Of a stretch of DNA of 64,000 bases, positions 11,387-63,664 are shown piece by piece (the stretch's first letter is position 1; each line of letters begins with the position of its first letter). The DNA is from Escherichia virus TH15: the sequence record MT446392.1, one strand, 5' to 3'. The translations under genes were made by a program, and so were the position numbers. The notes below the pieces were generated by a model that was not told where the DNA came from, made no database searches, and was given only the letters and a program-made list of their open reading frames with translations.

Positions 11387-11408
11387 ATCAACTACTGAGG
11401 AGAATAAA

Positions 11409-13749: not shown

Positions 13750-13752
13750 TCG

Positions 13753-13777
13753 AACCCGCTCCGGCGGGTTTATTTTT
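13753..13777 (+). terminator. rho-independent terminator
   Basis: AACCCGC-TCCG-GCGGGTT followed by T-tract. Confidence 0.6.
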
Positions 13778-13796: not shown

Positions 13797-13826
13797 GTGT
13801 ACATCCGGATTGACCGGGTGCATAAT
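13797..13826 (+). promoter_or_regulatory. early promoter cassette: -35 GTGTAC, -10 CATAAT, ACTGAGTTAC-type leader
   Basis: GTGTAC, 18-nt spacer, CATAAT; leader GATTCCATACTGAGTTAC shared with cassettes at 14864, 33166 and 33755. Confidence 0.5.
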
Positions 13827-14302: not shown

Positions 14303-14313
14303 TTGAGAAAAGT

Positions 14314-14349
14314 GTTTTACTTCCAAGTGGGATAGTGTATAATTATCCC
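14314..14349 (+). promoter_or_regulatory. early promoter cassette: -35 GTTTTAC, -10 TATAAT inside palindrome GGGATA...TATCCC
   Basis: 17-nt spacer; palindrome flanks the -10. Confidence 0.55.
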
Positions 14350-14385
14350 ATACTGAGTTACCAAATAAACAAACGGGATAATAAA

Positions 14386-14836: not shown

Positions 14837-14861
14837 AGGGGGTATACAAGCCCCCTGCTTT
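14837..14861 (+). terminator. hairpin terminator whose loop carries the -35 of the next promoter
   Basis: AGGGGG-TATACAAG-CCCCCT then GCTTT; loop contains GTATAC positioned 18 nt upstream of CATAAT (14866-14871). Confidence 0.5.
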
Positions 14862-14910
14862 AAGGCATAATGATTCCATACTGAGTTACCAAATAAAACT
14901 GGAGAATAAA

Positions 14911-15216
14911 ATGAAATTCATCATCAACCTGGCGCTTGTTGACTTTGATAAAACTGGTAATTTCGCATCTGCTGAAAATATGATTCGCAACACTAAGTTC
15001 AAAGTGCAAGTCCAGCAGGCGGTAGCAAAAGAGTTCTTTACTGATAAATTAACCCACGTTGTCAATCACCTGAATGTGCAAGTTAAATTCACTCGTAAAG
15101 CAGAAACTACAGTTGAATTTGATTTTGAATGTCGTTACCATGATGAATATGTTCGCCGCATCCTTAATATTGTATCTGATGAACTTTACTATGGTGTGCA
15201 GGAAAACAAAATCTAA
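14911..15216 (+). CDS. hypothetical protein
   Basis: 101-aa ORF behind a promoter cassette; SD ctggagaa. Confidence 0.5.
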   Translation: MKFIINLALVDFDKTGNFASAENMIRNTKFKVQVQQAVAKEFFTDKLTHVVNHLNVQVKFTRKAETTVEFDFECRYHDEYVRRILNIVSDELYYGVQENKI

Positions 15217-15886: not shown

Positions 15887-15893
15887 GATAAAA

Positions 15894-15908
15894 GGGGGCT
15901 TTGCCCCC
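15894..15908 (+). terminator. GC-rich hairpin (weak terminator)
   Basis: GGGGGC-TTT-GCCCCC, no clear T-tract. Confidence 0.3.
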
Positions 15909-15929
15909 TAATTGGGAGAGGAGAATATT

Positions 15930-18456: not shown

Positions 18457-18486
18457 GTATACAAGTCTAAAGAAACATAGTATCAT
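18457..18486 (+). promoter_or_regulatory. early promoter-like element: -35 GTATAC, -10 TATCAT
   Basis: 18-nt spacer; leader CTCGTCAACTAATGAGGAAA precedes the ATG at 18515. Confidence 0.4.
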
Positions 18487-19725: not shown

Positions 19726-19755
19726 GTGTACAACCAAATGGGGCTATGACATAAT
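19726..19755 (+). promoter_or_regulatory. early promoter cassette: -35 GTGTAC, -10 CATAAT
   Basis: 18-nt spacer. Confidence 0.5.
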
Positions 19756-21739: not shown

Positions 21740-22495
21740 ATGAATTATCTAAAAATATATGAATCTTTAATAGTATCTGCTATTAAAAGACCTCTTACAC
21801 AAGGATACACCGAAAAACATCATATTTTACCGAAATCGATGGGTGGTAATGATTCTATTGATAATTTAGTTACCCTTACCGCCCGTGAACATTTTATTGC
21901 ACACTTATTATTGGCAAGAATTTTTAAGAATCGCGAAATGTGGTCCGCTGCATATATGATGGCTTCAACAAGTCTAACTAACTCGGATAGACATAGATGC
22001 TCGTCACATTTATATGAATTATTGCGTAAACAAGCGTCGGTATATAATTCAGGTGAAAATTCTCCAAATTGGGGAATAAAACGTTCTGAAGAAACACGAT
22101 TAAAAATGTCAATTTCAAAAATGGGTATCAGGAATCCAATGTACGGTATTCCACAATGTTTGGAACACTCTCATAAAATTAGCCTTGGTGTTACCGAAGC
22201 TTTTAAAAATCCAGAAATGAAAGAACGCCACCGTCAAAGTGTTTCTGGAGAGAATAATGGGTTTTATGGAAAAAAACATTCCGAAAAAAGTTTGGAAAAA
22301 CAGCGGAATACAAAACGGAAAGGATTTCCTTGGGACAATTATTTGGAATTGTACCCAATTTGGGTTTCATTAAATTGCCCCAAGCATCCAACATTCACAA
22401 ATGAACTTGTTAAATTGGGATACCCCAAAAAGAAGCTTGTTCGAATAGTGGAAGAGTTTAAAAATGAATATATTCGAAATGCTACGCATAGATGA
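21740..22495 (+). CDS. HNH homing endonuclease
   Basis: 251 aa; N-terminal [11 protein letters not shown]...[20 protein letters not shown] is the typical HNH core; NUMOD-like basic repeats at the C-terminus; overlaps start of e by 32 nt. Confidence 0.7.
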
Positions 22496-22952
22496 AGGTT
22501 GTAAATTAGATTTGTATAAAGATACCGAGGGGTACTATACCATTGGTATCGGGCAACTGATAACTAAGAACCCATCGAAAGATGTTGCTCGTGCCGAGCT
22601 CGACAAGCTCATGGGTCGCGTCTGTAATGGTCGCATAACCCAGCACGAAGCTGAAACATTGTTTAACCGTTCGGTCGAAAAAGCTAAAGCCGGAATATTG
22701 AGGCATCCTGTCTTAAAACCTGTTTATGATGTACTGGATGAAGTTCGTCGTTGTGCACTCATTAATATGGTATTCCAGATGGGTGTTGCCGGGGTTGCTG
22801 GTTTTCCTAAGGGACTGCGATTGCTCAAGGCCAAATCGTGGGAAGCTGCTGCTAAGGAACTGGCGGACTCAAGATGGTATAAAGTCCAGACTCCAAACCG
22901 GGCCAAACGAGTTATTGAAACTTTCCGTACTGGAACTTTTGACGCTTATTAG
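22464..22952 (+). CDS. e: endolysin (T4 lysozyme homologue, gene e)
   Basis: 162 aa; [12 protein letters not shown]...[11 protein letters not shown]...[13 protein letters not shown]...[13 protein letters not shown] closely parallels T4 lysozyme. Confidence 0.9.
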
Positions 22953-22989
22953 TTTACATCTCCAAACGATAGGGTTATAATGACCCTAT
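22952..22989 (+). promoter_or_regulatory. early promoter cassette: -35 GTTTAC, -10 TATAAT bracketed by inverted repeat ATAGGGT/ACCCTAT
   Basis: 18-nt spacer; 7-bp inverted repeat around the -10; leader ATCAACTACGGAG. Confidence 0.55.
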
Positions 22990-25904: not shown

Positions 25905-25939
25905 TGTACAAGCAGGTTGAAATGAGTTATGATTATCCC
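25904..25939 (+). promoter_or_regulatory. early promoter cassette: -35 GTGTAC, -10 TATGAT, half palindrome TATCCC
   Basis: 18-nt spacer; leader ATCAAACAAAAGGAG precedes regB. Confidence 0.45.
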
Positions 25940-29774: not shown

Positions 29775-29781
29775 TTCAAAA

Positions 29782-29807
29782 GGTCTGCCTTCGGGTGGAC
29801 CTTTTTT
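29782..29807 (+). terminator. rho-independent terminator (UUCG-loop hairpin)
   Basis: GGTCTGCC-TTCG-GGTGGACC followed by TTTTTT. Confidence 0.55.
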
Positions 29808-29816
29808 CATTTAGGG

Positions 29817-29852
29817 GTTTACATCCTCATAAAAAGGGTGTACTATTATCCC
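29817..29852 (+). promoter_or_regulatory. early promoter cassette: -35 GTTTAC, -10 TACTAT, TATCCC half-site
   Basis: 18-nt spacer; leader ATCAACTACTGAGGAG. Confidence 0.5.
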
Positions 29853-33101: not shown

Positions 33102-33107
33102 ATTCTA

Positions 33108-33134
33108 AGGACCCTTCGGGGTCCTTTTTTATTT
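33108..33134 (+). terminator. rho-independent terminator (UUCG-loop hairpin)
   Basis: AGGACCC-TTCG-GGGTCCT followed by TTTTTT. Confidence 0.7.
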
Positions 33135-33143
33135 TAAAAAGTA

Positions 33144-33173
33144 GTGTACAACAAGATGGTCATGAGGCATAAT
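33144..33173 (+). promoter_or_regulatory. early promoter cassette: -35 GTGTAC, -10 CATAAT, ACTGAGTTACC leader
   Basis: 18-nt spacer; leader GATTCCATACTGAGTTACCAAATAAAAACGGGAG. Confidence 0.55.
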
Positions 33174-33731: not shown

Positions 33732-33761
33732 GTGTACACCAGTATGGGAGCGTGACATAAT
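33732..33761 (+). promoter_or_regulatory. early promoter cassette: -35 GTGTAC, -10 CATAAT, ACTGAGTTACC leader
   Basis: 18-nt spacer; same leader class as 33144. Confidence 0.55.
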
Positions 33762-39557: not shown

Positions 39558-40634
39558 ATGCAAGATTATGGCCATTGGTCTGTATTTGAAGAAGTTGACA
39601 TTAAAAATTATATTGGGTTTGTGTACGTGATTACATTTGAAGACGGTCGCAAATATGTTGGTGCTAAAAAGATTTGGAAACGAATCAAAGCAGCTCCATG
39701 CACATTCAAGCGCGGTCCCAAAAAAGGTTTTGAAGAATCTGATTGGAAAACCTACACATCCTCATCAAATGAGTTAAACTCAATTCTGGAAAATGGTATA
39801 AAGCCAAAAGAAATGATTATCATGGGTTGGTATCCAACTTGGGGTAAAACACTTATGGCTGAAATGGAAATGCAACTAGCTAATGATGTTTTGCGAGACC
39901 CAATGTGGCTCAACAAACAGATTGGTGGTCATTTCAACCCCAACTGTTTTGATGATTTGACTCAAGATGATATTGCTCGATGGATTGAATTTGACAAAGG
40001 CAATGAACATGTTAATTGGCCTGTGATGTATAAAATGGGTCAGAAAACTAAATATGTTAAACCTGACGAAGTTGAAAATTATTTGGCGAAGGGTTGGCAG
40101 TTTGGGCGTTCTCGTTCAGAAAAGCATGGAATAATTACCAATTGTTCTTCGTATAAAATTTGGGATTACCAGACTGATACGGAAGTTGAAGTCGTTAACC
40201 AAACCGAGTTCGCGCAAGAAAATGAAATCTCTGCAAGTCATTTAACCAGACTGTTACAGGGTGATTTAGACCTAATTCAGGAACGTTGGGGCTTACCTCC
40301 GACCATTGCACGACAAAGATACAAATTTGCTTTGGCTGATGATAGTGTAAAATTTATATCGAACGCTGATGTTGAACAATATTTTGGTGTTGGTCGCGGT
40401 GGTTGTGCAAAAATATTAAAAGATGGAAAAATTAAAAAGTTGGTCGTGGAAGACAAAAAATCGCATAAAGCAAAACTTGCAACCATGGATTTAGTCAAAA
40501 CAGTTCGACATGAAAAAGTTTCACAAATGGAATTAAACTTTTTCAAAGATATGGTTAATCCGCTATCTCAAACTGAAAGAGATAACTTAACAGTATGGCT
40601 CGAAAGCTATATACAGTATTTAAAAAACAACTGA
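39558..40634 (+). CDS. possible GIY-YIG-type (Seg-like) endonuclease
   Basis: 358 aa; N-terminal YIGFVYVITFEDGRKYVGAKK resembles the GIY-(10 aa)-YIG module; remainder unassigned. Confidence 0.35.
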   Translation: MQDYGHWSVFEEVDIKNYIGFVYVITFEDGRKYVGAKKIWKRIKAAPCTFKRGPKKGFEESDWKTYTSSSNELNSILENGIKPKEMIIMGWYPTWGKTLMAEMEMQLANDVLRDPMWLNKQIGGHFNPNCFDDLTQDDIARWIEFDKGNEHVNWPVMYKMGQKTKYVKPDEVENYLAKGWQFGRSRSEKHGIITNCSSYKIWDYQTDTEVEVVNQTEFAQENEISASHLTRLLQGDLDLIQERWGLPPTIARQRYKFALADDSVKFISNADVEQYFGVGRGGCAKILKDGKIKKLVVEDKKSHKAKLATMDLVKTVRHEKVSQMELNFFKDMVNPLSQTERDNLTVWLESYIQYLKNN

Positions 40635-40772
40635 GGAAATCGCTCAAATGATTAATTTTTATGGCTACATATTTTATGCTTTAGCTGAATCTATGAATGA
40701 TATTATCCGCCGCATGGGTGACGAGTATCCTTCTCAATGGCTATTCCTCGTAACCAATACAGGACCTTTCTA

Positions 40773-40988
40773 ATGAATAATTTTCGCAATGCGGCGGCAG
40801 ATATCCTGGCAAACATAACGCTTGTGTTGTTCATCGTTTGTCTGCTTATTCTGGCTATCCCGTTTGGTTTGCTGTTTGTTATCATCGGTTGGTTAAGCAC
40901 TAATCCTGGCCTCGAAAGCTCTGAATTCAACAAAAGAATCCAGGCTATTCATAATACCATTGCAAAAATGCTGAAGGTGAAAGAATGA
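40773..40988 (+). CDS. small membrane protein
   Basis: Start at Met 13 of ORF 40737..40988, coupled (TAATG) to a 41-aa upstream ORF at about 40648-40772. Confidence 0.4.
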   Translation: MNNFRNAAADILANITLVLFIVCLLILAIPFGLLFVIIGWLSTNPGLESSEFNKRIQAIHNTIAKMLKVKE

Positions 40989-41284: not shown

Positions 41285-41582
41285 GATTGAAATCTATGGT
41301 ATCCCCGAAGAAGTCGGTCGATGCCCTGGTTGTATGCACGTCAGGAGCCTTCTGGGCTCCTTAAACCTTCCTTATACATTCTATTCAGTCCTTAACAAAC
41401 AAGGCTCTGAAATCGCTTATGACAGGCCATTAATCGTGTCTTTGGCTAAGCGTGCTGGATATCCTACCCTTAACATTCGTTACCCAGTGATTTTTGTCAA
41501 TGATGAAAAAATGACCAATATTCCTGCCTTTAAAACAAAACTGATATCCCTGGGGTATGACCAGGACTTAATTGAAGATTAA
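41265..41582 (+). CDS. thioredoxin-fold (glutaredoxin-like) protein
   Basis: 105 aa; CPGC motif near the N-terminus in an NrdC-like context. Confidence 0.4.
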   Translation: MGQNSTKIEIYGIPEEVGRCPGCMHVRSLLGSLNLPYTFYSVLNKQGSEIAYDRPLIVSLAKRAGYPTLNIRYPVIFVNDEKMTNIPAFKTKLISLGYDQDLIED

Positions 41583-41584
41583 AA

Positions 41585-41618
41585 AGGGGTGTACAAGCCC
41601 CTTTGAATGATGTATCAT
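41585..41618 (+). promoter_or_regulatory. overlapping terminator hairpin and early promoter (-35 GTGTAC in the hairpin loop, -10 TATCAT)
   Basis: AGGGG-TGTACAAG-CCCCT hairpin; GTGTAC, 18-nt spacer, TATCAT; ATGAT/ATCAT inverted repeat around the -10. Confidence 0.5.
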
Positions 41619-41649
41619 TATCCCATCAACTACTGATGAGGAAAACAAA

Positions 41650-41832
41650 ATGGTTATTCAAGATAAAGAAATTAAAGTTGACCGGTATTATTCTGTAAAT
41701 GGCTATCCTGTACAGGTAACCAAAGTGACTGACCAAGATGTATGGTATCGTCCTTTGAAATGGCCTGATGCTCCGTTGATGGTGTGTGACCGTAGCTTGT
41801 TCAATACAGTTGCAAAAGGACCTAAATTATGA
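41650..41832 (+). CDS. hypothetical small protein
   Basis: 60-aa ORF with SD gaggaaa. Confidence 0.45.
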   Translation: MVIQDKEIKVDRYYSVNGYPVQVTKVTDQDVWYRPLKWPDAPLMVCDRSLFNTVAKGPKL

Positions 41833-42715: not shown

Positions 42716-42723
42716 AAACCAAC

Positions 42724-42745
42724 GGGGTCATGGTATAATGACCCC
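42724..42745 (+). promoter_or_regulatory. -10 TATAAT inside perfect palindrome GGGGTCAT...ATGACCCC
   Basis: 8-bp inverted repeat arms flank the -10; no good -35 seen. Confidence 0.4.
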
Positions 42746-42782
42746 AAGGATAATAAAATTTTAATTGAATGAGGAATATATC

Positions 42783-46701: not shown

Positions 46702-48370
46702 GCTAAAGAAAGTTATCTATAAAAATATCATGTCAGTTGGAGCGCAAGCAATTACGGTTCAACTTGATAAAGTCCAGAAAACTCTGGTGACCGGTAAGAA
46801 CGGTGCAGGTAAATCAACCTTCCTTGAAGCCGTTACATTTGCATTGTTTGGTAAGCCTTTTCGTGATGTTAAGAAAGGGCAGTTGATTAACTCGAGCAAC
46901 AAAAAAGATATGCTCGTTGAATTGTGGATGGAATATGATGGAAAAGAATACTATATCAAGCGTGGGCAAAAACCCAATGTTTTTGAAATCTCTTGTGGCG
47001 GTGAACGTCTTGATGAATCTGCCAGCAGTAAAGACTTCCAAGCAGAATTTGAACAGCTTATCGGAATGTCATACGCCAGTTTCAAACAGATTGTCGTGCT
47101 CGGCACAGCTGGATATACCCCTTTCATGGGCCTATCCACTCCTGCAAGAAGAAAACTTGTCGAAGACCTGTTAGAGGTTTCTGTACTGGCGGATATGGAT
47201 AAGCTGAACAAATCTCTTATCCGTGAAGTCAACAGTCAAATCCAGGTGATTGATGTTCAGCATGATGGTGTTGTGCAACAGATTAAAATCTACCAGGACA
47301 ACGTTGAAAAGCAGAAAAAATTATCAGGTGATAATCTGCTGCGGTTGCAAACGATGTATGATGATTTGGCTTCAGAAGCTCGTGATATCAAATCAACGAT
47401 TGATGAAGCAACGACAAGATTGACCGAGATTATTTTGGGCGAAGACCCTGAACAGGAACTGACGAAAGTCAAGCAAGAATCGTTCCTGATTAAATCGAAA
47501 ATCGATAGCTTCCGTAAAGTAATCGGTTTGTACGAGAAAGGCGGTTGTTGCCAAACGTGTTTGAGTCAATTGTCGCCAGGAGACTCCATAGTCCCCAGGA
47601 TTGAGACAAAGATTGAAGAGTATAATCGTGAGTCTGATAGCCATAAAGCTCTCCAGGCCTCCATTCAGGAGCGATTTGATGCGTACGCTGAAGCAAGACA
47701 AAACCAACGTACAATAGCTCAAGAGATTCAAACTAAGAAACAAACATTAATCCAGACTGTGGATAAAGCTAAAAAGGTTAAGACGTTAATTGAACAAGCT
47801 AAGTCTGAATTCATTGACCATGCCGATGATATTAAAACGCTTCAAGACCAGCTTGATAAAATAGTCAAACAGAAATCTGACCTTGTTATGGAAAAATATC
47901 AACGTGGTATCTTAACTGATATGTTGAAAGATTCTGGAATCAAAGGCGCGATTATTAAGAAATATATTCCTATCTTTAATAAGCAAATTAATGCTTATCT
48001 GAAAGTTATGGAAGCTGATTATAGTTTTACGCTTGATGAAGAATTCAACGAAACAATTAAATCTCGTGGGCGTGAAGACTTTAGCTATGCATCATTTAGC
48101 CAGGGTGAAAAAGCTCGTATCGATATTGCATTGTTGTTTACATGGCGTGATATTGCTGCGAAAGTATCTGGTGTGCAAATTAGTACGTTGATTCTGGATG
48201 AGGTCATGGATTCAGCCACTGACGCCGAAGGCATCAAAGCTATCCAGGCAATTATCAATAAATTAGAAGGTCAAAACGTGTTTATCATTAGCCATCGTGA
48301 ACACGACCCAGAAGCATATGGGCAGCATCTTCAAATGAAAAAAGTTGGTCGATTTACTGTTCTGGAATGA
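46688..48370 (+). CDS. 46: recombination nuclease ATPase subunit gp46 (Rad50/SbcC-like)
   Basis: Start at Met 5 of ORF 46676..48370 gives 560 aa as in T4 gp46; Walker A GKNGAGKST; closely parallels T4 gp46. Confidence 0.9.
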   Translation: MKTFKLKKVIYKNIMSVGAQAITVQLDKVQKTLVTGKNGAGKSTFLEAVTFALFGKPFRDVKKGQLINSSNKKDMLVELWMEYDGKEYYIKRGQKPNVFEISCGGERLDESASSKDFQAEFEQLIGMSYASFKQIVVLGTAGYTPFMGLSTPARRKLVEDLLEVSVLADMDKLNKSLIREVNSQIQVIDVQHDGVVQQIKIYQDNVEKQKKLSGDNLLRLQTMYDDLASEARDIKSTIDEATTRLTEIILGEDPEQELTKVKQESFLIKSKIDSFRKVIGLYEKGGCCQTCLSQLSPGDSIVPRIETKIEEYNRESDSHKALQASIQERFDAYAEARQNQRTIAQEIQTKKQTLIQTVDKAKKVKTLIEQAKSEFIDHADDIKTLQDQLDKIVKQKSDLVMEKYQRGILTDMLKDSGIKGAIIKKYIPIFNKQINAYLKVMEADYSFTLDEEFNETIKSRGREDFSYASFSQGEKARIDIALLFTWRDIAAKVSGVQISTLILDEVMDSATDAEGIKAIQAIINKLEGQNVFIISHREHDPEAYGQHLQMKKVGRFTVLE

Positions 48371-48375
48371 GCCTC

Positions 48376-49092
48376 TTATTGAGGCTTCATTTTGCAGTTA
48401 TCAAAATGCCAACGTTTCATATTAGCTGGTGTACCGACTACATTACAGTGTGGACACTGAATTTTGGGGTCCACCTTTTTCTTCCGGTTTGGATTGGATT
48501 TGCAGAATTGTCGGTGAGTGGATATAACACACTTTTTACCTTCAATACCACAAAATTCACAAGTTAAAATTTCATGTTTAGCTTGTTTTAATCCTACTGA
48601 AATTTTTTGCTTTCGTTCTTCTGAAATAGTATGAACAACCTTGTTTGGACCTTTGGAACAGTTATCAAAATGCCAACGATTCATATTGCCAACGAGACCG
48701 GTTTTTCCACAATGTGGACATTCAACTCTCGGTTTTAATTTGGCAGATTCTGACATTTTCTTTCTGGTTTCATCGGAGAAAATTTTATTTTGTTGAGCTT
48801 CCAAGTTTTTACGACGAAGCCATCCAAATAATTTGTTTTTGCTTCTGTCGGTGTTTGGTGCAGAAACTGTCATCATGCGTGCGGCATAGACCAAAGAAGC
48901 ATTATTTGGATGCATTTTGACCAACAGTTGATGACAAACGAAATGTTCCTCGGGAGTTAAATCAACAAGATTTGAAGCGTCGTCTGCCCCACCCATACAA
49001 CGGGGTATAATGTGATGACTTTCAGAGTATGTGGTTAATTTGCGATTCAATGCTCTGCTAATAAGCTTTTGGTAAATGATGTTATAATTCAT
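48376..49092 (-). CDS. HNH homing endonuclease with repeated C-terminal zinc-finger-like motifs
   Basis: Start at Met 68 of minus ORF 48376..49293: MNYNIIYQKLISRA...ESHHIIPRCMGG is the typical HNH start; three CPHCG...NMxRWHFDNC-type repeats follow. Confidence 0.7.
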   Translation of the reverse strand: MNYNIIYQKLISRALNRKLTTYSESHHIIPRCMGGADDASNLVDLTPEEHFVCHQLLVKMHPNNASLVYAARMMTVSAPNTDRSKNKLFGWLRRKNLEAQQNKIFSDETRKKMSESAKLKPRVECPHCGKTGLVGNMNRWHFDNCSKGPNKVVHTISEERKQKISVGLKQAKHEILTCEFCGIEGKKCVISTHRQFCKSNPNRKKKVDPKIQCPHCNVVGTPANMKRWHFDNCKMKPQ

Positions 49093-49329
49093 ATCAGACC
49101 CTTGTTTGATACTGCAACGGATAATATTATTTATGAGCAATTTTTTAACCGGGCAGCATTTACTGGCTGTCCCCGAAATTAAACGATATGTGTTAGTTAA
49201 TACCTTTTCGAAAGATGAACACCTAGTTACTGAACGTGACTTACAAAACGCTTTCGGTGAAGAATATGTTAAAATAATCGCGAACAGACACAAAGCCTGG
49301 TTCGCATATGAATACTTTGATTAATTGAA

Positions 49330-49755
49330 TTGAATAGAGAGAATATTATGAACAACGTAACTGCTAAAGATATCCAAGTTAAAACCATCCGCACCGACGC
49401 TAACCCACATAACCAAAACCGCATCCGTAAATCCTGGGTCCTGGCATGTGATGAAGTATCTGCCACCCGTCTGAAATCACTTCCTCAAGAAGTTAAATTT
49501 ATGTTGTATGGTGTTATTGATACTGATGTATCTGATAAGTGGATTGAACTGATGCAACGTCATTACACCGAATCTCTGGCAGCTGGTGCTAAACTGGTTA
49601 TCGACCGTGACGGCTCCGAACGTCTAGAAGATGATTACTGTGTTGACTTCGATGACCACCTGGTCCAAGCTGGTTCTATTATTGCTGCGCAACTTCCAGA
49701 GTATATTGAATCTCTTCCGGAAGCTATCCGCAAACAAATGGCAGTTGTTGCGTGA
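49330..49755 (+). CDS. hypothetical protein (position corresponds to T4 rpbA/45.2)
   Basis: 141-aa ORF upstream of the gene 45 cluster. Confidence 0.4.
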   Translation: MNRENIMNNVTAKDIQVKTIRTDANPHNQNRIRKSWVLACDEVSATRLKSLPQEVKFMLYGVIDTDVSDKWIELMQRHYTESLAAGAKLVIDRDGSERLEDDYCVDFDDHLVQAGSIIAAQLPEYIESLPEAIRKQMAVVA

Positions 49756-50639
49756 ATTTGATTTATAAAATAACCTTTATAACAAGGGAACAAAATAACG
49801 AATTCCCTTGTTATTATATTGGTTCAAAGGTTGATGCGACATTTAACGGTCAAAATATTCTCGACAAAAATAATAAAATTTATACAGGTTCTCCGAATTC
49901 AAAATACACTAAGCTGTATAATGAATTGATTGATAGAGGTGACTATATTGTTACTATCATTGGAGAAACAAAGCAGGACCCAAGAAAAATAGAAAATATT
50001 TTTCAAATGTCAGTTAAAGCTGTAACCAATGAGAAGTACTTTAATAAAACGTATGCTCACGACCAAAGCCGGTATGATGCTCCTGGATATGCTCCATACC
50101 GAAACTTGAAAACAGGTAAAGTCGTTAAATTGCATCCATCTGAACTTACATCTGATTATGTTGGTGTTCGTAAAGACTGCTCAATTTCGGATAAGCACAT
50201 TCAAGCAATTAAAGACTTTCAAAAAGAATATTGGACTGCCGAAGCTCGACAAGCAAGGTCTATTGAAGTCAAAAATCGTTATAAAGATGCCGAGTATGCT
50301 TTAAAATTCAAAGTTATAATGAATACATCTGAAGTATACGAAAAATATTTAAAATCAATTACTGAATATTGGAATAATTCAGATAATAGAATAAAGGCTT
50401 CAAAACGAGCAACTGAAAGAAATGCTAGTCCTGAGTTTAAAGAAAAATTTAGGAAATCCAAAGCAAGGGGAACCTGGTTGCAGTATGAAGATGAACTTAA
50501 AACATTGTGGAATGCTTTAGGTCAACCGGGGTATATTAAGTTTAGAAAACACGCCATTGAACATGGGTTTAATGATGAAAATTATCAGGGTGCAATCCGG
50601 TCCTGGTCAAATTATTATGTTAATAGGAAAATGAAATGA
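49752..50639 (+). CDS. GIY-YIG homing endonuclease (Seg-like)
   Basis: 295 aa; N-terminal LIYKITFITREQNNEFPCYYIGSK is a GIY-(13 aa)-YIG module; lysine-rich repeats follow. Confidence 0.6.
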   Translation: MNLIYKITFITREQNNEFPCYYIGSKVDATFNGQNILDKNNKIYTGSPNSKYTKLYNELIDRGDYIVTIIGETKQDPRKIENIFQMSVKAVTNEKYFNKTYAHDQSRYDAPGYAPYRNLKTGKVVKLHPSELTSDYVGVRKDCSISDKHIQAIKDFQKEYWTAEARQARSIEVKNRYKDAEYALKFKVIMNTSEVYEKYLKSITEYWNNSDNRIKASKRATERNASPEFKEKFRKSKARGTWLQYEDELKTLWNALGQPGYIKFRKHAIEHGFNDENYQGAIRSWSNYYVNRKMK

Positions 50640-51331: not shown

Positions 51332-51385
51332 TAAATGGGGCTTCGGCCCCATGGAGTATTGAGTAGAAACTAATGAGGAAAATAT

Positions 51386-53504: not shown

Positions 53505-53509
53505 AGCAA

Positions 53510-53529
53510 AGGGACTTCGGTCCCTTTTG
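53510..53529 (+). terminator. UUCG-loop hairpin / weak terminator upstream of gene 43
   Basis: AGGGAC-TTCG-GTCCCT followed by TTTGT; then TAGTATAAT -10-like element at 53531-53538. Confidence 0.45.
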
Positions 53530-53589
53530 TAGTATAATAGCGTCAAGTCATAAAACAAAAGTCAATCACTCGACTATAAAGGAAACCAA

Positions 53590-55113
53590 ATGCAAGAATT
53601 TTATTTAACTATCGAACAAATCGGTGACAACCTGCTCGAACGGTACATTGACAAGAATGGTCATGAACGTGTTCGTGAAATCCCTTATGCTCCATGCTTG
53701 TTTATGCATGCTCGCGAAGACCAGGCTGCAAAGTATACAGACATCTATAATAAAGGTTGTGTGAAAAAAGAATTCGATTCCATGCGTGATGCATCCCAGT
53801 GGATGAAGCGCATGAACGATATGGGCCTCGAAGCTATGGGTATGGACGATTTCAAACTCGCGTACCTGAGCGACCGTTACCCACATGAAATCAAATACGA
53901 TTCAAGTAAAATCCGTGTGGCTAACTTCGATATCGAGGTGACATCTCCTGATGGGTTCCCTGAGCCGTCTGAAGCACGTCACCCTATCGATGCCCTGACG
54001 CACTATGATTCGGTAGACGATAAATTCTATGTCTTTGACCTTTTGAGCTCGCCATACGCCACTGTGGAGCAATGGTCTATTGATATTGCTGCTAAGCTGC
54101 AGGAAGATGGCGGTGATGAAGTCCCCGAAGAAATCCTGGAAAAAATTGTTTATATGGCTTTCGATTCAGAAGAAGAAATGCTCCAGCAGTATTTGGTATT
54201 CTGGAACGAGAAAACTCCGGTTATGTTAACTGGTTGGAACATCGAGAAATTTGATATTCCGTATATCTACAACCGCATTAAAAATGTATTTGGTGAAGCT
54301 ACGGCCAAACGTCTGAGCCCACATCGTCGTACAAAAGTTAAAGTCATTAACAACGGCTTTGGTGAAGAACAAGAAATCATTCAGATTCTGGGTATCTCTG
54401 TTCTGGATTATCTGGACCTGTACAAAAAGTTCAGCTTCACAAACCAACCGTCTTACTCGTTGGACTATGTTGCGGAATCTGAGCTGGGTGTTGGTAAACT
54501 TCCGTATGATGGCCCGATTTCTAAATTACGTGAATCCAATCACCAGCGATACATCAGCTATAACATCATTGACGTTTATCGTGTTGTGCAGATTGACCGT
54601 AAGCGACAGTTCATTAACCTGAGCCAATCGATGGGTTATTATGCAAAGATGCAGATTCAGTCTGTATTCAGCCCAATCAAAACTTGGGATGCGATTATCT
54701 TTAACAGTCTGAAGACTCAAAACAAGGTTATCCCTGAAACCAAATCACATGTTCGTCAATCGTTCCCTGGTGCATTTGTTAAGGAACCGATTCCGAACGC
54801 ATACAAATATGTAATGAGCTGTGACTTAACATCTCTGTATCCGAGCATCATCCGACAGATTAACATCAGTCCAGAAACGATTGCCGGGTCATTTGCACCA
54901 GCCCAGATGCACGAATACATCGCAGGAACTGCTGACCGTCCATCTGATGCATTTAGTTGTGCGCCAAATGGTATGATGTATTTTAAAGATGTTGCGGGTA
55001 TTATTCCGACAGAAGTTGAGAAAGTTTTTAATCAACGAAAAACCGAAAAGAAAAAGATGTTGGCGGCACAACGTAATAGTGAATTGATTAAAGAAATTTT
55101 ACATGGAAAATAA
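53590..55113 (+). CDS. 43: DNA polymerase gp43, N-terminal segment (exonuclease and N-terminal domains)
   Basis: 507-aa ORF ending in a stop; contains B-family polymerase N-terminal and 3'-5' exonuclease regions (e.g. FDIEV); continues in ORF 55791..56966. Confidence 0.85.
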   Translation: MQEFYLTIEQIGDNLLERYIDKNGHERVREIPYAPCLFMHAREDQAAKYTDIYNKGCVKKEFDSMRDASQWMKRMNDMGLEAMGMDDFKLAYLSDRYPHEIKYDSSKIRVANFDIEVTSPDGFPEPSEARHPIDALTHYDSVDDKFYVFDLLSSPYATVEQWSIDIAAKLQEDGGDEVPEEILEKIVYMAFDSEEEMLQQYLVFWNEKTPVMLTGWNIEKFDIPYIYNRIKNVFGEATAKRLSPHRRTKVKVINNGFGEEQEIIQILGISVLDYLDLYKKFSFTNQPSYSLDYVAESELGVGKLPYDGPISKLRESNHQRYISYNIIDVYRVVQIDRKRQFINLSQSMGYYAKMQIQSVFSPIKTWDAIIFNSLKTQNKVIPETKSHVRQSFPGAFVKEPIPNAYKYVMSCDLTSLYPSIIRQINISPETIAGSFAPAQMHEYIAGTADRPSDAFSCAPNGMMYFKDVAGIIPTEVEKVFNQRKTEKKKMLAAQRNSELIKEILHGK

Positions 55114-55801
55114 ATTGCATTTTGTGTATAAAATTACAAATAACATTAATGGTAAAATTTACATCGGTGTTCACAGCACCGATGATATTAATGATGGATA
55201 TTTGGGCAAAGGTACTTTAATTCAGAAAGCTATTAAAAAATATGGGAAATCTAATTTTAAAAAGGAAATTTTGGAATTTTTCGAGGACCGCACTTCAGCC
55301 TTTGACAAAGAGCGAGAGCTTGTAACCAGAGAATTTGTCAGTTTGACAACAAACTATAATTTAAAAACTGGCGGCGAAGGTGGTGCAATGTATGGTAAAA
55401 CCAATCCGATGTATGGTCGAACATATAGGAAGTCGGAATCAGAGAAGACCCAAATTTCGTTGCGATTTAAAAATGTTCCCAAAACCAACCAGCACAAACA
55501 AAACCTATCCAATTCATTACTCGGTAAACCCAGACCGGACATCGCTGAGAGACAGCGCGGATTGTTACCCTGGAATGTTAATTCTATTCGCAATAACAAA
55601 ACCAGACTAAGAAAATTCGCCGACCTGGATATTATTTTCGATTATTGGTCTAGTCATAAATGTGGTGTTAAAGCATTAGCGAATTGGTATCAACTGGCGA
55701 CGTATAATGAATTAGCATCCGTTATGCGATTCATTAAAAAGTATGGTGACCCGCGACTGAATGGTGATTGGAAAAAATTTAAGGCTGACTATGAATATTG
55801 A
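55103..55801 (+). CDS. GIY-YIG homing endonuclease inserted within gene 43
   Basis: 232 aa; HFVYKITNNINGKIYIGVHS is a GIY-(10 aa)-YIG module; MYGKTNPMYGRT repeats; overlaps both polymerase ORFs by about 11 nt. Confidence 0.75.
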   Translation: MENKLHFVYKITNNINGKIYIGVHSTDDINDGYLGKGTLIQKAIKKYGKSNFKKEILEFFEDRTSAFDKERELVTREFVSLTTNYNLKTGGEGGAMYGKTNPMYGRTYRKSESEKTQISLRFKNVPKTNQHKQNLSNSLLGKPRPDIAERQRGLLPWNVNSIRNNKTRLRKFADLDIIFDYWSSHKCGVKALANWYQLATYNELASVMRFIKKYGDPRLNGDWKKFKADYEY

Positions 55802-56966
55802 TTATAATGCTGATTTTACAGAAGAACAAATCGAATACTTAAAAACTTTGTCTAAAGATGAATTGGAACACCATTTATACAATTCTCAAATGGCTGAAGT
55901 AGCTGCAAACACCGCGCAGATTAACCGTAAACTGCTTATCAATAGCTGTTATGGTGCTCTGGGCAATATCTGGTTCCGTTACTTTGACCTGCGAAATGCA
56001 ACTGCGATTACATCTTTCGGGCAACTTGCATTGCAGTGGATTGAGCGTAAAGTTAACGAATACTTCGATAGTGTTTGTGGTACAAGTGGTGAGACTTACG
56101 TATTCTATGGCGATACTGACTCCATTTATATCCAGTGCGATAACCTGATTAAAAAGGTTGGTGGTGAATCTAAATTCCGCGATACAAACCACCTGGTTGA
56201 CTTCATGGACAAGTTTGCAAAAGACCGTCTGGAACCGGCAATTGATAAAGCTTTCCGTGAACTGGCCGAATACATGAACAATAAACAGCACCTTATGTTT
56301 ATGGACCGTGAAGCGATTGCATGTCCTCCGCTGGGTTCTAAAGGCGTGGGTGGATTCTGGACGGCGAAGAAGCGTTATGCGTTGAACGTGTATGATATGG
56401 AAGGCACACGATATGCTGTTCCGAAACTGAAAATTATGGGTCTGGAAACTCAAAAGTCGAGCACTCCAAAAGCATGTCAGAAAGCTCTGAAAGAATGTAT
56501 CCGTCGCATGCTGCAAGAAGGTGAAGAATCTCTGCAGACATACTTCAAGGAATTCAATAAGGAATTTAATGAGCTTAACTACATGACCATCGCAGGTGTA
56601 TCATCGGTTAACAACATCCAGAAATATAATGAGGGCGGTTTCCCTGGATTTAAGTGCCCGGCTCATATCAAAGGTGTGCTTGCATATATGCGTGCAACTA
56701 AAGGGCTGAAGACTGTTCCGCAAATCATGGAAGGGGAAAAGGTGTATGTGCTTCCTCTTAAAGTTGGTAATCCGTTTGGCGAAACCGTGATTGCGTGGCC
56801 ATCAGGGATTGAACTCCCGATTGAAATTCGTGACCAAGTCTTGCAGTGGATGGACTACAACACACTGTTCCAGAAGACTTTTGTTAAGCCATTGACAGGG
56901 TTCTCTGAAGCAGCTAAGGTTGATTACGAGAAAAAAGCATCTCTTTTTGATATGTTTGATTTTTAA
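55791..56966 (+). CDS. 43: DNA polymerase gp43, C-terminal segment (palm/thumb, motif C YGDTDS)
   Basis: Start at Met 11 of ORF 55761..56966; INSCYGALGN and YGDTDSIY polymerase motifs. Confidence 0.85.
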   Translation: MNIDYNADFTEEQIEYLKTLSKDELEHHLYNSQMAEVAANTAQINRKLLINSCYGALGNIWFRYFDLRNATAITSFGQLALQWIERKVNEYFDSVCGTSGETYVFYGDTDSIYIQCDNLIKKVGGESKFRDTNHLVDFMDKFAKDRLEPAIDKAFRELAEYMNNKQHLMFMDREAIACPPLGSKGVGGFWTAKKRYALNVYDMEGTRYAVPKLKIMGLETQKSSTPKACQKALKECIRRMLQEGEESLQTYFKEFNKEFNELNYMTIAGVSSVNNIQKYNEGGFPGFKCPAHIKGVLAYMRATKGLKTVPQIMEGEKVYVLPLKVGNPFGETVIAWPSGIELPIEIRDQVLQWMDYNTLFQKTFVKPLTGFSEAAKVDYEKKASLFDMFDF

Positions 56967-57038
56967 GTGTTTACAATGGCAAAGGATTGCCGTATGATTA
57001 CTCCATCAATTACTGATGATTAACTTAAGGATATTAAA

Positions 57039-59533: not shown

Positions 59534-60957
59534 AAACTATTTTATCCCAGCTACTCTTTAACAAGGAATATTTTGTTAAAGTCTGGCCATATCTGAATAA
59601 TACATATTTTGAAAAGGGTCCTGCGAAGACCCTTTTTAATACGATTAACGAACATGTAAAAGAATATCAAGCAGTGCCAACTAAGACTGCACTTGATATC
59701 GCGCTCGACGGTTCTGACCTTTCTGAAGTTGAATATGAAGGCACAAAGAAACTCTTAGGAGTCCTGGCCGATACTCCAGAAGACCAGGAATGGTTGGTCA
59801 GAGAAACCGAGAAGTATGTACAGAAGTCTGCGATGTTCAATGCCACATCCAGGATTATCGAAATCCAGAGTAATGCCGAACTTCCGAAAGATAAGCGTGA
59901 TAAACGAATCCCGGATATCGGGGCTATCCCTGACATTATGCGCGATGCATTGTCTATTTGTTTTGACTCTGCTCTGGGCCATGACTGGTTAAACGATTAC
60001 GAAGCTCGATTCCAGACTTATCTGAACAAATCGAAGAAAGTTCCGTTCCGTATTAACATCCTGAATAAAATTACGAAGGGTGGAGTTGAGTACGGTACAG
60101 AGAACGTTTTACTAGCCGGGACAAACGTCGGGAAATCCCTTGGACTCTGTTCATTAGCCGCTGACTATCTTCAGACTGGTCATAACGTTCTTTATATAAG
60201 CATGGAAATGGCTGAAGAAGTATGTGCCAAACGTATTGATGCCAACTTGCTGGATGTGTCTCTGGATGATATTGATGAAGGTCATATATCATGGGCGGAA
60301 TATAAAGCTAAGATGGAAAAATGGCGTGCTTCCGGGACTCTCGGGACTCTGAAGATAAAACAATATCCAACTGGGGGCGCGCATGCGGATACCTTCCGTG
60401 CATTACTGAACGAGTACAAACTGAAGCAAGGATTTGTACCAGATGTGATTATTGTTGACTACCTGGCAATCTGCGCAAGCTCAAGACTGAAAACGTTTAC
60501 CGAAAACAGTTACGGCCTGATTAAGATGGTTGCAGAAGAACTTCGTGGTCTGGCGGTCGAGAAAAATGTGGTCCTATGGACCGCGGCGCAGACAACCAGG
60601 GGCGCGAACGTTGCAGCTGAGATTGATATGGCTGACATCGCAGAATCCTTTGGTATTGCTCACACGGCTGACTTTATGTTGGGTGTTGTTGAGACCGAAG
60701 AATTCGCTCAAATGGGACTGCAGTTAATCAAACAGCTTAAGTCTCGTTATGGCGATAAGAACTACTATAATAAATTCAAGATGGGTGTTAAGAAAGGTAA
60801 TCAACGCTGGTATGAGGTTGATGATGATTCAGCTCCTAAACAAGGCCCTACGGTGAAAGAAGCCACTGGTGAGATGAATCGTCAGGCTGAAATGAATAGA
60901 CAAACCAGGGTCAACAGGAGCGACCTGGATGACCTTGCCGCTCAAATGAAATTTTAA
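59518..60957 (+). CDS. 41: replicative DNA helicase gp41
   Basis: 479 aa with GTG start (59518 or 59527); ...LFNKEYFVKVWPYLNNTYFE...GTNVGKSLGLCSLAADYLQTGHNVLYISMEMAEE... closely parallels T4 gp41. Confidence 0.9.
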   Translation: MVEVVETILSQLLFNKEYFVKVWPYLNNTYFEKGPAKTLFNTINEHVKEYQAVPTKTALDIALDGSDLSEVEYEGTKKLLGVLADTPEDQEWLVRETEKYVQKSAMFNATSRIIEIQSNAELPKDKRDKRIPDIGAIPDIMRDALSICFDSALGHDWLNDYEARFQTYLNKSKKVPFRINILNKITKGGVEYGTENVLLAGTNVGKSLGLCSLAADYLQTGHNVLYISMEMAEEVCAKRIDANLLDVSLDDIDEGHISWAEYKAKMEKWRASGTLGTLKIKQYPTGGAHADTFRALLNEYKLKQGFVPDVIIVDYLAICASSRLKTFTENSYGLIKMVAEELRGLAVEKNVVLWTAAQTTRGANVAAEIDMADIAESFGIAHTADFMLGVVETEEFAQMGLQLIKQLKSRYGDKNYYNKFKMGVKKGNQRWYEVDDDSAPKQGPTVKEATGEMNRQAEMNRQTRVNRSDLDDLAAQMKF

Positions 60958-60968
60958 AATATTTTAAA

Positions 60969-60989
60969 AGGGGCTTACAGCCCCTTTTT
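60969..60989 (+). terminator. rho-independent terminator after gene 41
   Basis: AGGGGC-TTACA-GCCCCT followed by TTTTTC. Confidence 0.65.
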
Positions 60990-61002
60990 CTTATGTTATA
61001 AT
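60973..61002 (+). promoter_or_regulatory. early promoter overlapping the terminator loop (-35 GCTTAC, -10 TATAAT)
   Basis: 18-nt spacer; leader GACCCTATCAACTACTGGAG. Confidence 0.45.
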
Positions 61003-61028
61003 GACCCTATCAACTACTGGAGAATAAA

Positions 61029-61346
61029 ATGAAAACTATTGATTGCAAAGCGGAATACAAAGTTTATTATCATGGCTCAAGCTCTAATGCTGGAATCCAA
61101 AATATGCTTTGCCCTCCTGATGCAACTGGTGTTCTGTCAGAAGTTGGGCGCAAGAAAAATTTAGGGCGTGTGTTTTTTACTGAAGATATTGGTTTGGCAC
61201 GTATCTATGCAGGAAGAGCAGCTCGTTCAGTGGGAGGAGAACCCCGTCTTTATCGTGTGATTGCACCTGTTGATGTGGTTTGTTTAAATGATACTAAAGG
61301 CGCAACAGTTTATCACGCAGACTGGGCGTTTTGTGAGGAAATCTAA
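61029..61346 (+). CDS. small protein with ADP-ribosyltransferase-fold-like H-G-S motif (tentative)
   Basis: 105 aa; KVYYHGSSSNAGIQNML...GRVFFTEDIGLARIYA resembles the H-G-S ... aromatic ... acidic layout of PARP/Tpt1-type folds. Confidence 0.3.
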   Translation: MKTIDCKAEYKVYYHGSSSNAGIQNMLCPPDATGVLSEVGRKKNLGRVFFTEDIGLARIYAGRAARSVGGEPRLYRVIAPVDVVCLNDTKGATVYHADWAFCEEI

Positions 61347-61901: not shown

Positions 61902-61936
61902 GTGTACAACAAAGGGATAATGCAGTATATTATCCC
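61902..61936 (+). promoter_or_regulatory. early promoter cassette: -35 GTGTAC, -10 TATATT inside palindrome GGGATAA...TATCCC
   Basis: 18-nt spacer; leader ATCAACTACTGAGGAG. Confidence 0.55.
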
Positions 61937-63463: not shown

Positions 63464-63631
63464 TATGAAAACATTCAAAGATTTTATAAACGAAGATATG
63501 GTTGCAGGTGATGCAGGTGGAAACCCAACTAATATCGCAACAGGTACCACTTCCGGGGCAGTTGTCAATAAAGGCCCTGAACAAATCCCATCAAAAAAGC
63601 GTAAGAATAAAGACGATAAACCTACAGTATA
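63464..63631 (+). CDS. small protein with capsid-targeting-type N-terminus (MKTFKDFINE; 55 aa, below the ORF-track cutoff)
   Basis: Hand-translated MKTFKDFINEDMVAGDAGGNPTNIATGTTSGAVVNKGPEQIPSKKRKNKDDKPTV; SD aaaggggg; preceded by a late-promoter motif. Confidence 0.45.
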
Positions 63632-63664
63632 ATGGTCCTTCGGGGCCATTGAAATGAGGAAACT

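Follow-up and report, generated by a model that had tools for sequence, protein, structure and literature searches.

Immediately after the stop codon of nrdH, at position 41585, the genome of Escherichia virus TH15 carries a GC-rich stem-loop whose loop contains a hexamer resembling a promoter -35 element, which raises the question of whether one short intergenic sequence both ends the transcript of the upstream gene and starts that of the next. The DNA analysed here (the window; 64,000 nucleotides of MT446392.1) extends from gene 4 to gene 61, in the early/middle region of a T4-like myovirus of the genus Gaprivervirus (VR7/VR25 group), and is 91-97% identical to the Gaprivervirus coliphages VR7, VR25, VR26 and SP18, whose records have the reverse orientation. 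A first-pass annotation of the window had proposed that three such hairpins, here called element 1 (41585), element 2 (14837) and element 3 (60966), stop upstream transcription and launch a new transcript, making each small gene an insulated unit.

Results

Three stem-loops enclose the -35 hexamer of a predicted promoter

All three hairpins, each with a -35-like hexamer in its loop, are present where the annotation had placed them, except that the third ends at 60985 and not at 60986. The -10 element reported downstream was likewise found at each site, with a spacer of 17 bp rather than 18. The features of the three loci are as follows.

41585-41602, + strand: element 1 stem-loop, AGGGG-TGTACAAG-CCCCT, as read in the sequence
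41583-41604, + strand: element 1 stem extended by added A-T pairs, AAAGGGG-TGTACAAG-CCCCTTT
41590-41595, + strand: element 1 -35 hexamer, TGTACA, within the loop
41613-41618, + strand: element 1 -10 hexamer, TATCAT, after a spacer of 17 bp
41625-41832, + strand: conserved leader of element 1, ATCAACTACTGATGAGG, and a 60-aa gene with its ATG at 41650
14837-14856, + strand: element 2 stem-loop, AGGGGG-TATACAAG-CCCCCT
14843-14871, + strand: element 2 promoter, TATACA (14843), 17 bp, CATAAT (14866-14871)
14901-14911, + strand: GGAGAATAAAA, an exact RegB consensus at the ribosome-binding site, with gene 14911-15216 downstream
60969-60985, + strand: element 3 stem-loop, AGGGGC-TTACA-GCCCCT
60966-60988, + strand: element 3 extended stem, AAAAGGGGC-TTACA-GCCCCTTTT, followed by TTTTTCTT
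60974-61002, + strand: element 3 promoter, CTTACA (60974), 17 bp, TATAAT (60997-61002)
61019-61029, + strand: GGAGAATAAAA, RegB consensus at the ribosome-binding site of gene 61029-61346

The stems contain 4-6 G-C pairs and close loops within the 3-8 nt expected of a canonical intrinsic terminator, with folding energies of -8 to -11 kcal/mol: -7.9 kcal/mol for the core of element 1 (41586-41601; z -2.6 against shuffles), -10.8 kcal/mol for element 2 (z -2.2) and -9.5 kcal/mol for element 3 (z -3.4). Each hairpin starts 1-9 nt past the upstream stop codon, 1 nt after that of nrdH (41580-41582) for element 1 and 9 nt after that of the gp41 (gene 41) helicase for element 3, and 67-81 bp separate the upstream stop from the next ATG. 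Transcription is predicted to start near 41625, 14878 and 61009 for elements 1, 2 and 3, respectively. The genes downstream encode 60, 101 and 105 aa and have no Pfam matches; the 60-aa gene after element 1 is a homologue of T4 55.6, and element 2 has small genes of unknown function on both sides. An Rfam search of the window returned two tRNAs and nothing else.

A scan of the window for composites, defined as a perfect GC stem of 4 bp or more whose loop includes a -35-like hexamer spaced 16-18 bp from a -10, recovered three loci only, namely elements 1-3, all on the + strand. Among 200 dinucleotide-preserving shuffles the mean was 0.1 (both strands), and none (0/200) reached three. The overlap of hairpin and promoter that the annotation had reported is therefore real and non-random.

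The loop hexamers belong to a repeated family of early cassettes

A generic sigma-70 scan barely exceeded background (69, 70 and 51 sites, against 54, 64 and 48 in shuffles) and did not discriminate, so we used instead the family-specific pattern TRTACA-N17-YATNAT, which has 10 matches in the window, all on the + strand, against 0.18 expected. The loop hexamers of elements 1-3 are true members of this family. Listing every NNTACA followed by a -10 at 16-18 bp yielded about 20 + strand cassettes with a common plan: an A-tract (AAAAA) whose end is about 4 nt short of the -35, the -35 itself (mostly TGTACA, with TATACA, TTTACA or CTTACA as less frequent forms), a 17 bp spacer, the -10 and a leader of roughly 25 nt that is of one of two conserved types, tATCCCATCAACTACTGAGGAG or gATTCCATACTGAGTTACCAAATAAA..GGAGAATAAAATG. 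The ribosome-binding site is of the GGAG type and often an exact match to GGAGRAYARAA, the strong cleavage consensus of RegB (PMC3014915); GGAGAATAAAA, an exact match, occurs in five leaders including those of elements 2 and 3, against 0.34 expected. Beyond the three elements, and two cassettes listed further below with the UUCG hairpins that precede them, the family includes the following members.

9726-9754, + strand: early promoter, stem-loop over the -10
10708-10762, + strand: early cassette, stem-loop ATGGGATAA...TTATCCCAT around the -10
11042-11096, + strand: near-identical copy of the 10708-10762 cassette, the pair flanking a small ORF at 10763-11041
11353-11408, + strand: early cassette, stem-loop over the -10, RegB consensus at 11399
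13798-13826, + strand: early promoter, CCGG/CCGG stem-loop in the spacer, preceded by a terminator at 13752-13771
14303-14385, + strand: early cassette TTTACT-16-TATAAT, a chimera of two VR25 cassettes
18458-18486, + strand: early promoter TATACA-17-TATCAT, hairpin not significant, at an indel junction relative to VR25
19727-19755, + strand: early promoter, stem-loop over the -10
22953-22981, + strand: early promoter TTTACA-17-TATAAT, stem-loop ATAGGGT...ACCCTAT over the -10; VR25 has ip5 at this junction
25905-25933, + strand: early promoter of the cassette family
33733-33761, + strand: early promoter, 13-bp stem-loop over the -10 (z = -5.2), RegB consensus at 33790
56970-56998, + strand: early promoter, GGCAA/TTGCC stem-loop in the spacer
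61903-61931, + strand: early promoter, stem-loop GGGATAAT...ATTATCCC over the -10, at an indel junction relative to VR25

Folding of 16 cassettes from about -60 to +5 gave z scores of -1.2 or lower against their own shuffles for 13 of them (mean z about -2.2). Nearly all cassettes bear a stem-loop, and its position varies among the -35, the spacer, the -10 and the upstream region: it lies over the -35 in three (elements 1-3), over the -10 in about 8-10 (9726, 10708, 11353, 19727, 22953, 33733 and 61903; also 11042, 15222 and 42723) and within the spacer in two (13798 and 56970), and in two more (29778 and 33107) the promoter is closely preceded by a C(UUCG)G terminator that stands apart from it. 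Elements 1-3 are the most eye-catching subclass of a phenomenon that is general in the cassette family. That the three sites are copies within a repeated family, in which the stem-loop more often covers the -10, had been overlooked by the annotation, and its view of each small gene as an insulated unit is overstated: early cassettes occupy about 20 of 126 same-strand gene boundaries, and the -35 lies in a loop at only three.

In an alignment of the family, cassettes with a hairpin over the -35 have GGGG in place of the usual nTAG between A-tract and -35, which puts the G arm at about -39 to -36, and their C arm, CCCC, falls at about -29 to -26. Most family members have the A-tract, with or without a hairpin over the -35. 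The positions of these two arms are not base-specific contacts under the accepted model of sigma-70 promoters.

The cassettes resemble promoter-early stem-loops of other T4-type phages

Arbiol et al. (2010) described promoter-early stem-loops (PeSLs) in RB49/phi1: strong promoters of sigma-70-like type that combine a polyG/polyC stem-loop with AT-rich sequence upstream. Those with stem-loops overlapping the -35 form one of five subclasses (PMC2839356). Promoter activity was measured, one PeSL stem-loop cut lacZ expression as much as rrnB T1 did, and recombination between PeSLs yielded mini-circles, for which a crossover was located in the loop (PMC2839356). Comeau et al. (2014) extended PeSLs to T4/PST (TTTACW-N17-TAYWAT) and KVP40/nt-1 (PMC4122927).

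Like PeSLs, the cassettes of the window are intergenic repeats in which an AT-rich region precedes an early promoter (17 bp spacer) that is combined with a GC-rich stem-loop, and which run on to the ribosome-binding site and start codon (ATG) of a small gene; like PeSLs, they place the stem-loop variably, including over the -35 or the -10, and lie in variable regions at indel or replacement junctions. By sequence, every defining feature of a PeSL was found: promoter, stem-loop, intergenic position, repetition and association with indels and chimeras. They differ in the -35, which is T(G/A)TACA in the window, TTGACA in RB49/phi1 and TTTACW in T4/PST, and elements 1-3 depart from the T4/PST PeSLs, whose stem-loops are drawn just upstream of the promoter. 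The RB49/phi1 PeSLs were assayed experimentally, whereas the cassettes of the window are predicted from sequence. In the searchable full texts, we found no paper describing such cassettes in the VR7/VR25 group, and a search of full texts for phage terminators whose hairpin loop overlaps a promoter gave nothing relevant.

Bacterial terminators often overlap the next promoter, the stem-loop DNA acting as the -35 and the T-tract aiding the -10, and the coupled promoter makes termination more efficient, in vitro as well as in vivo, as Fletcher, Forrest, Cooper, Adams, Kapanidis and Grainger report for genes on the chromosomes of Acinetobacter and other bacteria (Fletcher et al., 2026; bioRxiv 10.64898/2026.08.19.745784). 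Elements 1-3 share with these terminators a stem-loop that provides the -35, a T-tract before the -10, an upstream A-tract, a setting between tandem genes and shortened intergenic regions. The bacterial 3' and 5' ends are mapped, with a modal separation of 10 bp, whereas those of the window are predicted, about 15-20 bp apart; and the bacterial elements are chromosomal, whereas those of the window are repeated, mobile-looking phage cassettes.

T4 early promoters, a class with UP, -35, TGn and -10 elements that is used immediately after infection (Hinton, 2010; PMC2988021), likewise resemble those of the window in being strong sigma-70 promoters whose -35 is non-canonical, with TACA in it, and lies downstream of an A-rich element, but their TGn extended -10 is mostly absent from the cassettes, in which the -35 is predominantly TGTACA. 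Lambdoid morons, too, are single small genes with their own promoter and terminator (PMC2839356), but they have no shared flanking repeats, whereas in the window the regulatory cassette itself is the repeated, recombining unit.

We consider it likely that elements 1-3 are compact members of a repeated early-gene cassette family, equivalent to PeSLs, that terminate or attenuate upstream transcription and then re-initiate it. That termination and initiation do take place at elements 1-3 we infer, as we do any coupling of the two.

Predicted terminator strength differs among the elements

Terminator strength was predicted from T-tracts scored with a weighted scheme of the d'Aubenton-Carafa type, in which clear terminators of the window reach 4.68 (29782), 5.20 (33109) and 4.31 (45212). 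The tail of element 3, TTTTTCTT, scores 4.65 with 7 U in 8, its T-tract fills the promoter spacer (9 T) and abuts the -10 in full, and a terminator scan scores the element as an intrinsic terminator on both strands. Element 1 (tail TTTGAATG; score 2.66; 4 U in 8) is borderline, with a T-tract that partially abuts the -10, and the sense-strand tail of element 2, TGCTTTAA, is a poor U-tract (1.70) that abuts it poorly. The U-tracts are predicted to end about 15-20 bp before the predicted transcription starts; promoter-coupled terminators are those with a 3' end no more than 35 bp upstream of a start on the same strand (Fletcher et al., 2026). By sequence, element 3 is thus a canonical, bidirectional-looking intrinsic terminator, element 1 a borderline one and element 2 a poor one. 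Element 3 is probably an efficient terminator; unless polymerase bound at the promoter strengthens them, elements 1 and 2 probably act as leaky attenuators or as protectors of the 3' end. The order stop codon, hairpin, promoter, leader, ATG, packed into 67-81 bp, agrees with the module that the annotation had envisaged, which stops one transcript and restarts the next, and such modules are known by experiment to function in RB49/phi1 PeSLs (PMC2839356) and in bacterial promoter-coupled terminators (Fletcher et al., 2026), but efficient termination is predicted only at 60966.

The five further hairpins with UUCG-type loops that the annotation had listed provide a comparison. All five are C(UUCG)G tetraloops with a C-G closing pair and a GC-rich stem, all are intergenic, and their positions are as follows.

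29778-29846, + strand: C(UUCG)G terminator (29778-29805, tail TTTTTTCA), then promoter TTTACA-17-TACTAT (29818-29846)
33107-33173, + strand: C(UUCG)G terminator (33107-33126, tail TTTTTTAT), then promoter TGTACA-17-CATAAT (33145-33173)
51335-51352, + strand: C(UUCG)G hairpin between genes 45 and 44, U-tract absent, score 0.67
53508-53527, + strand: C(UUCG)G hairpin upstream of gene 43, then TTTTGTAG, then TATAAT (53533-53538), score 3.65
63632-63649, + strand: C(UUCG)G hairpin beginning inside TATAAT (63628-63633), U-tract absent, score 1.80

The suggestion that some of these act mainly in mRNA stability or processing is reasonable for three of the five, while the other two, at 29778 and 33107, are by sequence textbook terminators followed by a promoter. 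With weak or absent U-tracts, the hairpins at 51335, 53508 and 63632 are more likely to be stability, processing or translation elements, and that at 51335 is, by its sequence, not a terminator. C(UUCG)G hairpins were reportedly described in intercistronic regions of T4 by Tuerk and colleagues, in PNAS in 1988; the five of the window are likewise exact and lie between genes, show no real difference from those of T4 and are ordinary for a T4-type phage.

The weak sense-strand U-tracts at 41585 and 14837 also bear on an alternative role for the hairpins over the -35, those two especially, as mainly 3'-end protectors or processing barriers that block exonucleases after read-through and cleavage and do not release polymerase. 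Similar GC hairpins with neither U-tract nor promoter exist at 15893-15909 and 51335-51352, RegB and RNase E extensively process the early mRNAs of T4-type phages (PMC3014915), and cassettes of the window contain RegB consensus sites. Against this alternative stand the full T-tracts of element 3 and of most homologous composites in other phages, as well as the PeSL stem-loop that matched rrnB T1 in a reporter assay (PMC2839356), and protection and termination can coexist. As the main function of the hairpins, we find it rather unlikely.

The composites are conserved and recur at a fixed spacing

The element 1 hairpin over the -35 is identical at the nrdH/55.6 junction of VR25 and ECML-359 (Gaprivervirus), and a further copy, with the T-rich spacer TTCTTTCT, occurs elsewhere in the genomes of VR25, VR26 and VR20. 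At the same junction, Dhakavirus (VR5, Bp7) has a GTTTAC promoter and no hairpin, and in Mosigvirus (PhAPEC2, PHB12) hairpin and promoter are apart, a stem-loop that the PhAPEC2 record annotates as a terminator being followed after about 100 bp by a GTTTACA promoter. These three arrangements across genera indicate that an early promoter is ancestral at nrdH/55.6 and that fusion with the hairpin is one of several solutions; since the orthologous site in Dhakavirus has no hairpin, the hairpin is not required for 55.6 expression. Element 2 is kept in P8 (with one extra G), M719-6WT.2 and RZ. Element 3 reads GGGGC-TTACA-GCCCC in the window and in VR20 and is a perfect palindrome, GGGG-TGTACA-CCCC, in VR25, a single compensatory pair difference (U-A in VR25, C-G in the window and VR20) that leaves the TACA core intact; as the stems are nearly invariant G-runs and C-runs, support from covariation is minimal for all three elements.

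The pattern AAGGGG-N(1-2)-TACA-N(0-2)-CCCCTT matched 101 unique contexts in IMG/VR. Thirteen of them have a -10 (5 or more positions of 6 matching) spaced exactly 17 bp away, compared with about one for any other spacing from 8 to 44. The 13 composites include two groups from uncultured, distant T4-like phages, one beside gp41/thyX-like and the other beside gp43-like genes, and one in the Enterococcus siphophage IME196, between tail genes; in most of the 13, the spacer is a full T-tract. A scan of IMG/VR with a 14-mer from the leader returned mostly chance matches in unrelated contigs and was used only to find extra VR20, VR25 and VR26 loci.

These comparisons bear on the proposal that the overlap serves nothing in itself, terminator and promoter having been squeezed into gaps of 67-81 bp in a tightly packed genome, where a -35 within the loop is the only fit. 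In favour of this proposal, the intergenic regions are very short, other genera separate the two elements or omit the hairpin at the same site, and the position of the stem-loop is free within the family (-35, spacer, -10 or upstream). Against this, the same design recurs at exactly 17 bp in unrelated phage lineages, and experiments on bacterial examples have shown the shared bases at work in both functions and an effect of the promoter on terminator efficiency; compaction would, moreover, still amount to function, as a selected arrangement. We judge the proposal unlikely.

Several cassettes lie at indel junctions

Comparison with relatives, mainly VR25, places indel junctions in or beside cassettes at 60957-60965, 61899, 18464, 22938-22976, 10792/11338, 13774 and 33101; other indel junctions are homing-endonuclease insertions. 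Because cassettes and indels both prefer intergenic gaps, the enrichment of junctions at cassettes is only suggestive. Element 3 is at a gene-deletion junction: VR20 and VR25 have gp41, a UUCG terminator, a promoter, an extra gene and then a cassette with its -35 in the loop, whereas in the window gp41 is followed directly by the element 3 cassette, with the junction within the shared A-tract/G-run. In the chimera at 14303-14385, the promoter half matches the VR25 cassette upstream of VR25_149 and the leader half the downstream one, with the crossover in the shared CCATACTGAGTTACCAAATAAA, and the window lacks the gene VR25_149. Chimeras and indel junctions at cassettes are what shuffling between PeSLs would lead one to expect. 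With a 501-bp query centred on element 2, each Gaprivervirus genome gives matches at 7-11 places. Relative to VR25, elements 1 and 2 do not lie at indel junctions, and they are stable across the Gaprivervirus genomes examined.

The elements might be selected mainly as DNA recombination substrates, either as portable blocks of homology or as cruciform-prone palindromes, by which small genes are shuffled, with secondary roles in transcription. The chimeric cassettes and those at indel junctions are in keeping with such selection, as are the near-identical tandem cassettes around ORF 10763-11041, the 7-11 copies per genome and the mini-circles of RB49/phi1 with their crossover in the loop (PMC2839356). 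The conserved positions, however, are exactly the determinants of promoter and ribosome-binding site and occur on the coding strand only, elements 1 and 2 are stable across the genomes examined, and recombination between repeats follows from the existence of repeats, with no need for separate selection. Selection of this kind is, in our estimation, improbable as the main explanation.

Discussion

The anatomy of the cassettes, their non-randomness, family membership, conservation in relatives, chimeras and indel junctions are direct observations. In the reading that we favour, in which elements 1-3 are PeSL-like cassettes that terminate or attenuate and then re-initiate, the upstream A-tract would serve as an UP-like promoter element, and the G-run and C-run arms would flank the -35 hexamer so that it becomes the loop, as it can because the arms occupy positions that RNA polymerase does not read base-specifically. 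The A-tract and the T-rich start of the spacer would lengthen the stem and supply the U-tract. RNA of the upstream gene would fold into the hairpin and be terminated or attenuated, efficiently at 60966, partially at 41585 and weakly at 14837, and the hairpin may also guard the 3' end of the upstream transcript. RNA polymerase would begin the new transcript about 15-20 bp further on, and the shared cassette sequence of about 60-90 bp would be a substrate for homologous recombination that adds, removes and swaps small genes.

A more far-reaching version would make the cassette with its -35 in the loop a dual-coded switch, a built-in timer that needs no antiterminator protein because termination depends on promoter occupancy. 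In such a switch, the A-tract would be both UP element and stem extension, the arms would be unread G/C runs, the loop would be the -35 and the T-tract the spacer. If this were true, early shut-off (alpha ADP-ribosylation, AsiA) would cause the weak hairpins at 41585 and 14837 to stop terminating, and insulated single-gene early transcripts would give way to delayed-early/middle transcripts made by read-through. T4 55.6 (comC-alpha/goF), whose homologue lies directly downstream of element 1, is a gene with a historical link to read-through of early transcription. This version is drawn by analogy with the bacterial coupled terminators, for which dependence of termination on promoter occupancy has been shown, and we hold it to be speculative, with a small chance of being correct.

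Very improbable, finally, is that the 41585 and 14837 hairpins are terminators of antisense (minus-strand) transcription: the terminator scan calls these two elements on the minus strand only (tails TTTTTAATC and TTTTGAATTA), but it does so because the A-tract of the promoter is a T-run on that strand, and this A-tract lies upstream of most cassettes, also those without a hairpin over the -35, and is better read as an UP-like element; the late-promoter core TATAAATA was not found on the minus strand anywhere in the window, and that strand has no genes downstream of about 6400. Antisense termination was on these grounds, the A-tract being a feature of the promoter family and the minus-strand late core being absent, rejected as the main role of elements 1 and 2.

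Elements 1-3 are a real finding and a largely ordinary one, a local version of PeSL cassettes whose architecture, promoter and terminator activities and role in gene shuffling are already published, and they open no new question here. The recurrence in IMG/VR at exactly 17 bp supports the recent claim that promoter-terminator coupling is general. For the phages themselves, the cassettes are of practical use in annotating early transcription units in genomes of the VR7/VR25 group and explain the sites at which small genes are gained and lost. With them, the VR7/VR25 coliphages join the T4-type phages that carry PeSL cassettes, in a tidy variant in which the loop of the terminator is the -35 of the promoter.

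Early cassettes and predicted RegB sites

The early cassettes of the window combine an early promoter and a leader, nearly always together with a stem-loop, and in five of them, at 11399, 14901, 33204, 33790 and 61019 on the + strand, the ribosome-binding site is GGAGAATAAAA. This sequence matches exactly the strong RegB cleavage consensus GGAGRAYARAA (PMC3014915; chance expectation 0.34), and on the strength of this motif we infer that RegB probably inactivates the early mRNAs of these five cassettes shortly after infection. Elsewhere, a 92-aa ORF (10763-11041) is bracketed by near-identical 55-bp promoter/stem-loop cassettes at 10708-10762 and 11042-11096, the tandem arrangement from which mini-circles of promoter-early stem-loops (PeSL) have been reported; VR25, a close relative, carries a different sequence in place of window segment 10792-11338. 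The first gene 3' of element 1, the hairpin at 41585 with a promoter -35 in its loop, lies at 41650-41832 and is a homologue of T4 55.6, which the reference list of a review (Hinton, 2010; PMC2988021) gives as comC-alpha, a gene implicated in early-transcription read-through.

Other stem-loops

A GC hairpin at 15893-15909 (AGGGGGC-TTT-GCCCCCT), located between two + strand genes, resembles element 1 and element 2 (the equivalent hairpin at 14837) minus their promoter, and its T-tract is found on the minus strand only. The stem-loop at 42723-42746, GGGGTCAT-GGTATA-ATGACCCC, encloses a TATAAT and has the highest stability among the stem-loops scored for a T-tract (-15.3 kcal/mol); neither a recognisable -35 nor a sense-strand U-tract accompanies it.

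Two UUCG hairpins lie close to a TATAAT. In the one located 5' of gene 43 (53508-53538), the loop region is GGGACTTCG and ends 13 nt upstream of TATAAT, the position expected for a MotA box, with the rare centre ACTT that is also present in T4 P46, and only four of nine positions match the MotA box. The hairpin may be a middle-promoter stem-loop (PmSL). At 63628-63649, the start of a C(UUCG)G hairpin falls within the TATAAT hexamer, upstream of which neither a -35 nor a MotA box was recognised; if this TATAAT is a real -10, the transcript start would fall within the 5' arm of the hairpin.

Endonuclease ORFs and inserts

Gene 43, encoding the family-B DNA polymerase, is divided into two ORFs within 53590-56966 and is continuous, without interruption, in VR25. 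This locus and two window-specific inserts comprise the following features:

48368-49142, window-specific insert
49752-50639, window-specific insert, 295 aa, without Pfam match
53590-55113, gene 43 first ORF, 507 aa, exonuclease domain and beginning of the polymerase domain
55103-55801, GIY-YIG endonuclease ORF, 232 aa, between the two gene 43 ORFs
55761-56966, gene 43 second ORF, 401 aa

Within 39558-40773, a SegE-type GIY-YIG endonuclease ORF (358 aa) occupies the position that gene 49 (endonuclease VII), nrdD and nrdG fill in VR25, a stretch totalling ~2.9 kb, and tblastn of these three VR25 proteins against the whole 64 kb window returned no match; similarity to the relative VR7 picks up again at 40618. 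An HNH/NUMOD3 homing-endonuclease-like ORF (251 aa, 21740-22495) is missing in VR25.

The same design in other phages

Morganella phage MP1 (NC_031020; sequence L132, 364-413), of the genus Gualtarvirus, carries the cassette AAAAAGTAG-TGTACA-N17-TATAAT-TATCCCATACTGAGTTA, as in the window, labelled in its record solely as a putative, MEME-derived promoter. Because MP1 belongs to another genus, the cassette family reaches past Gaprivervirus. The -35-in-loop design also occurs between tail genes of Enterococcus phage IME196 (KT932701; sequence L042, 7368-7440), as AAAGGGG-TTTACA-CCCCTTTGTTTTTGTGTTATAAT with a TG-extended -10; IME196 is a Gram-positive siphophage, and the -35-in-loop composite therefore extends outside the T4-like phages.
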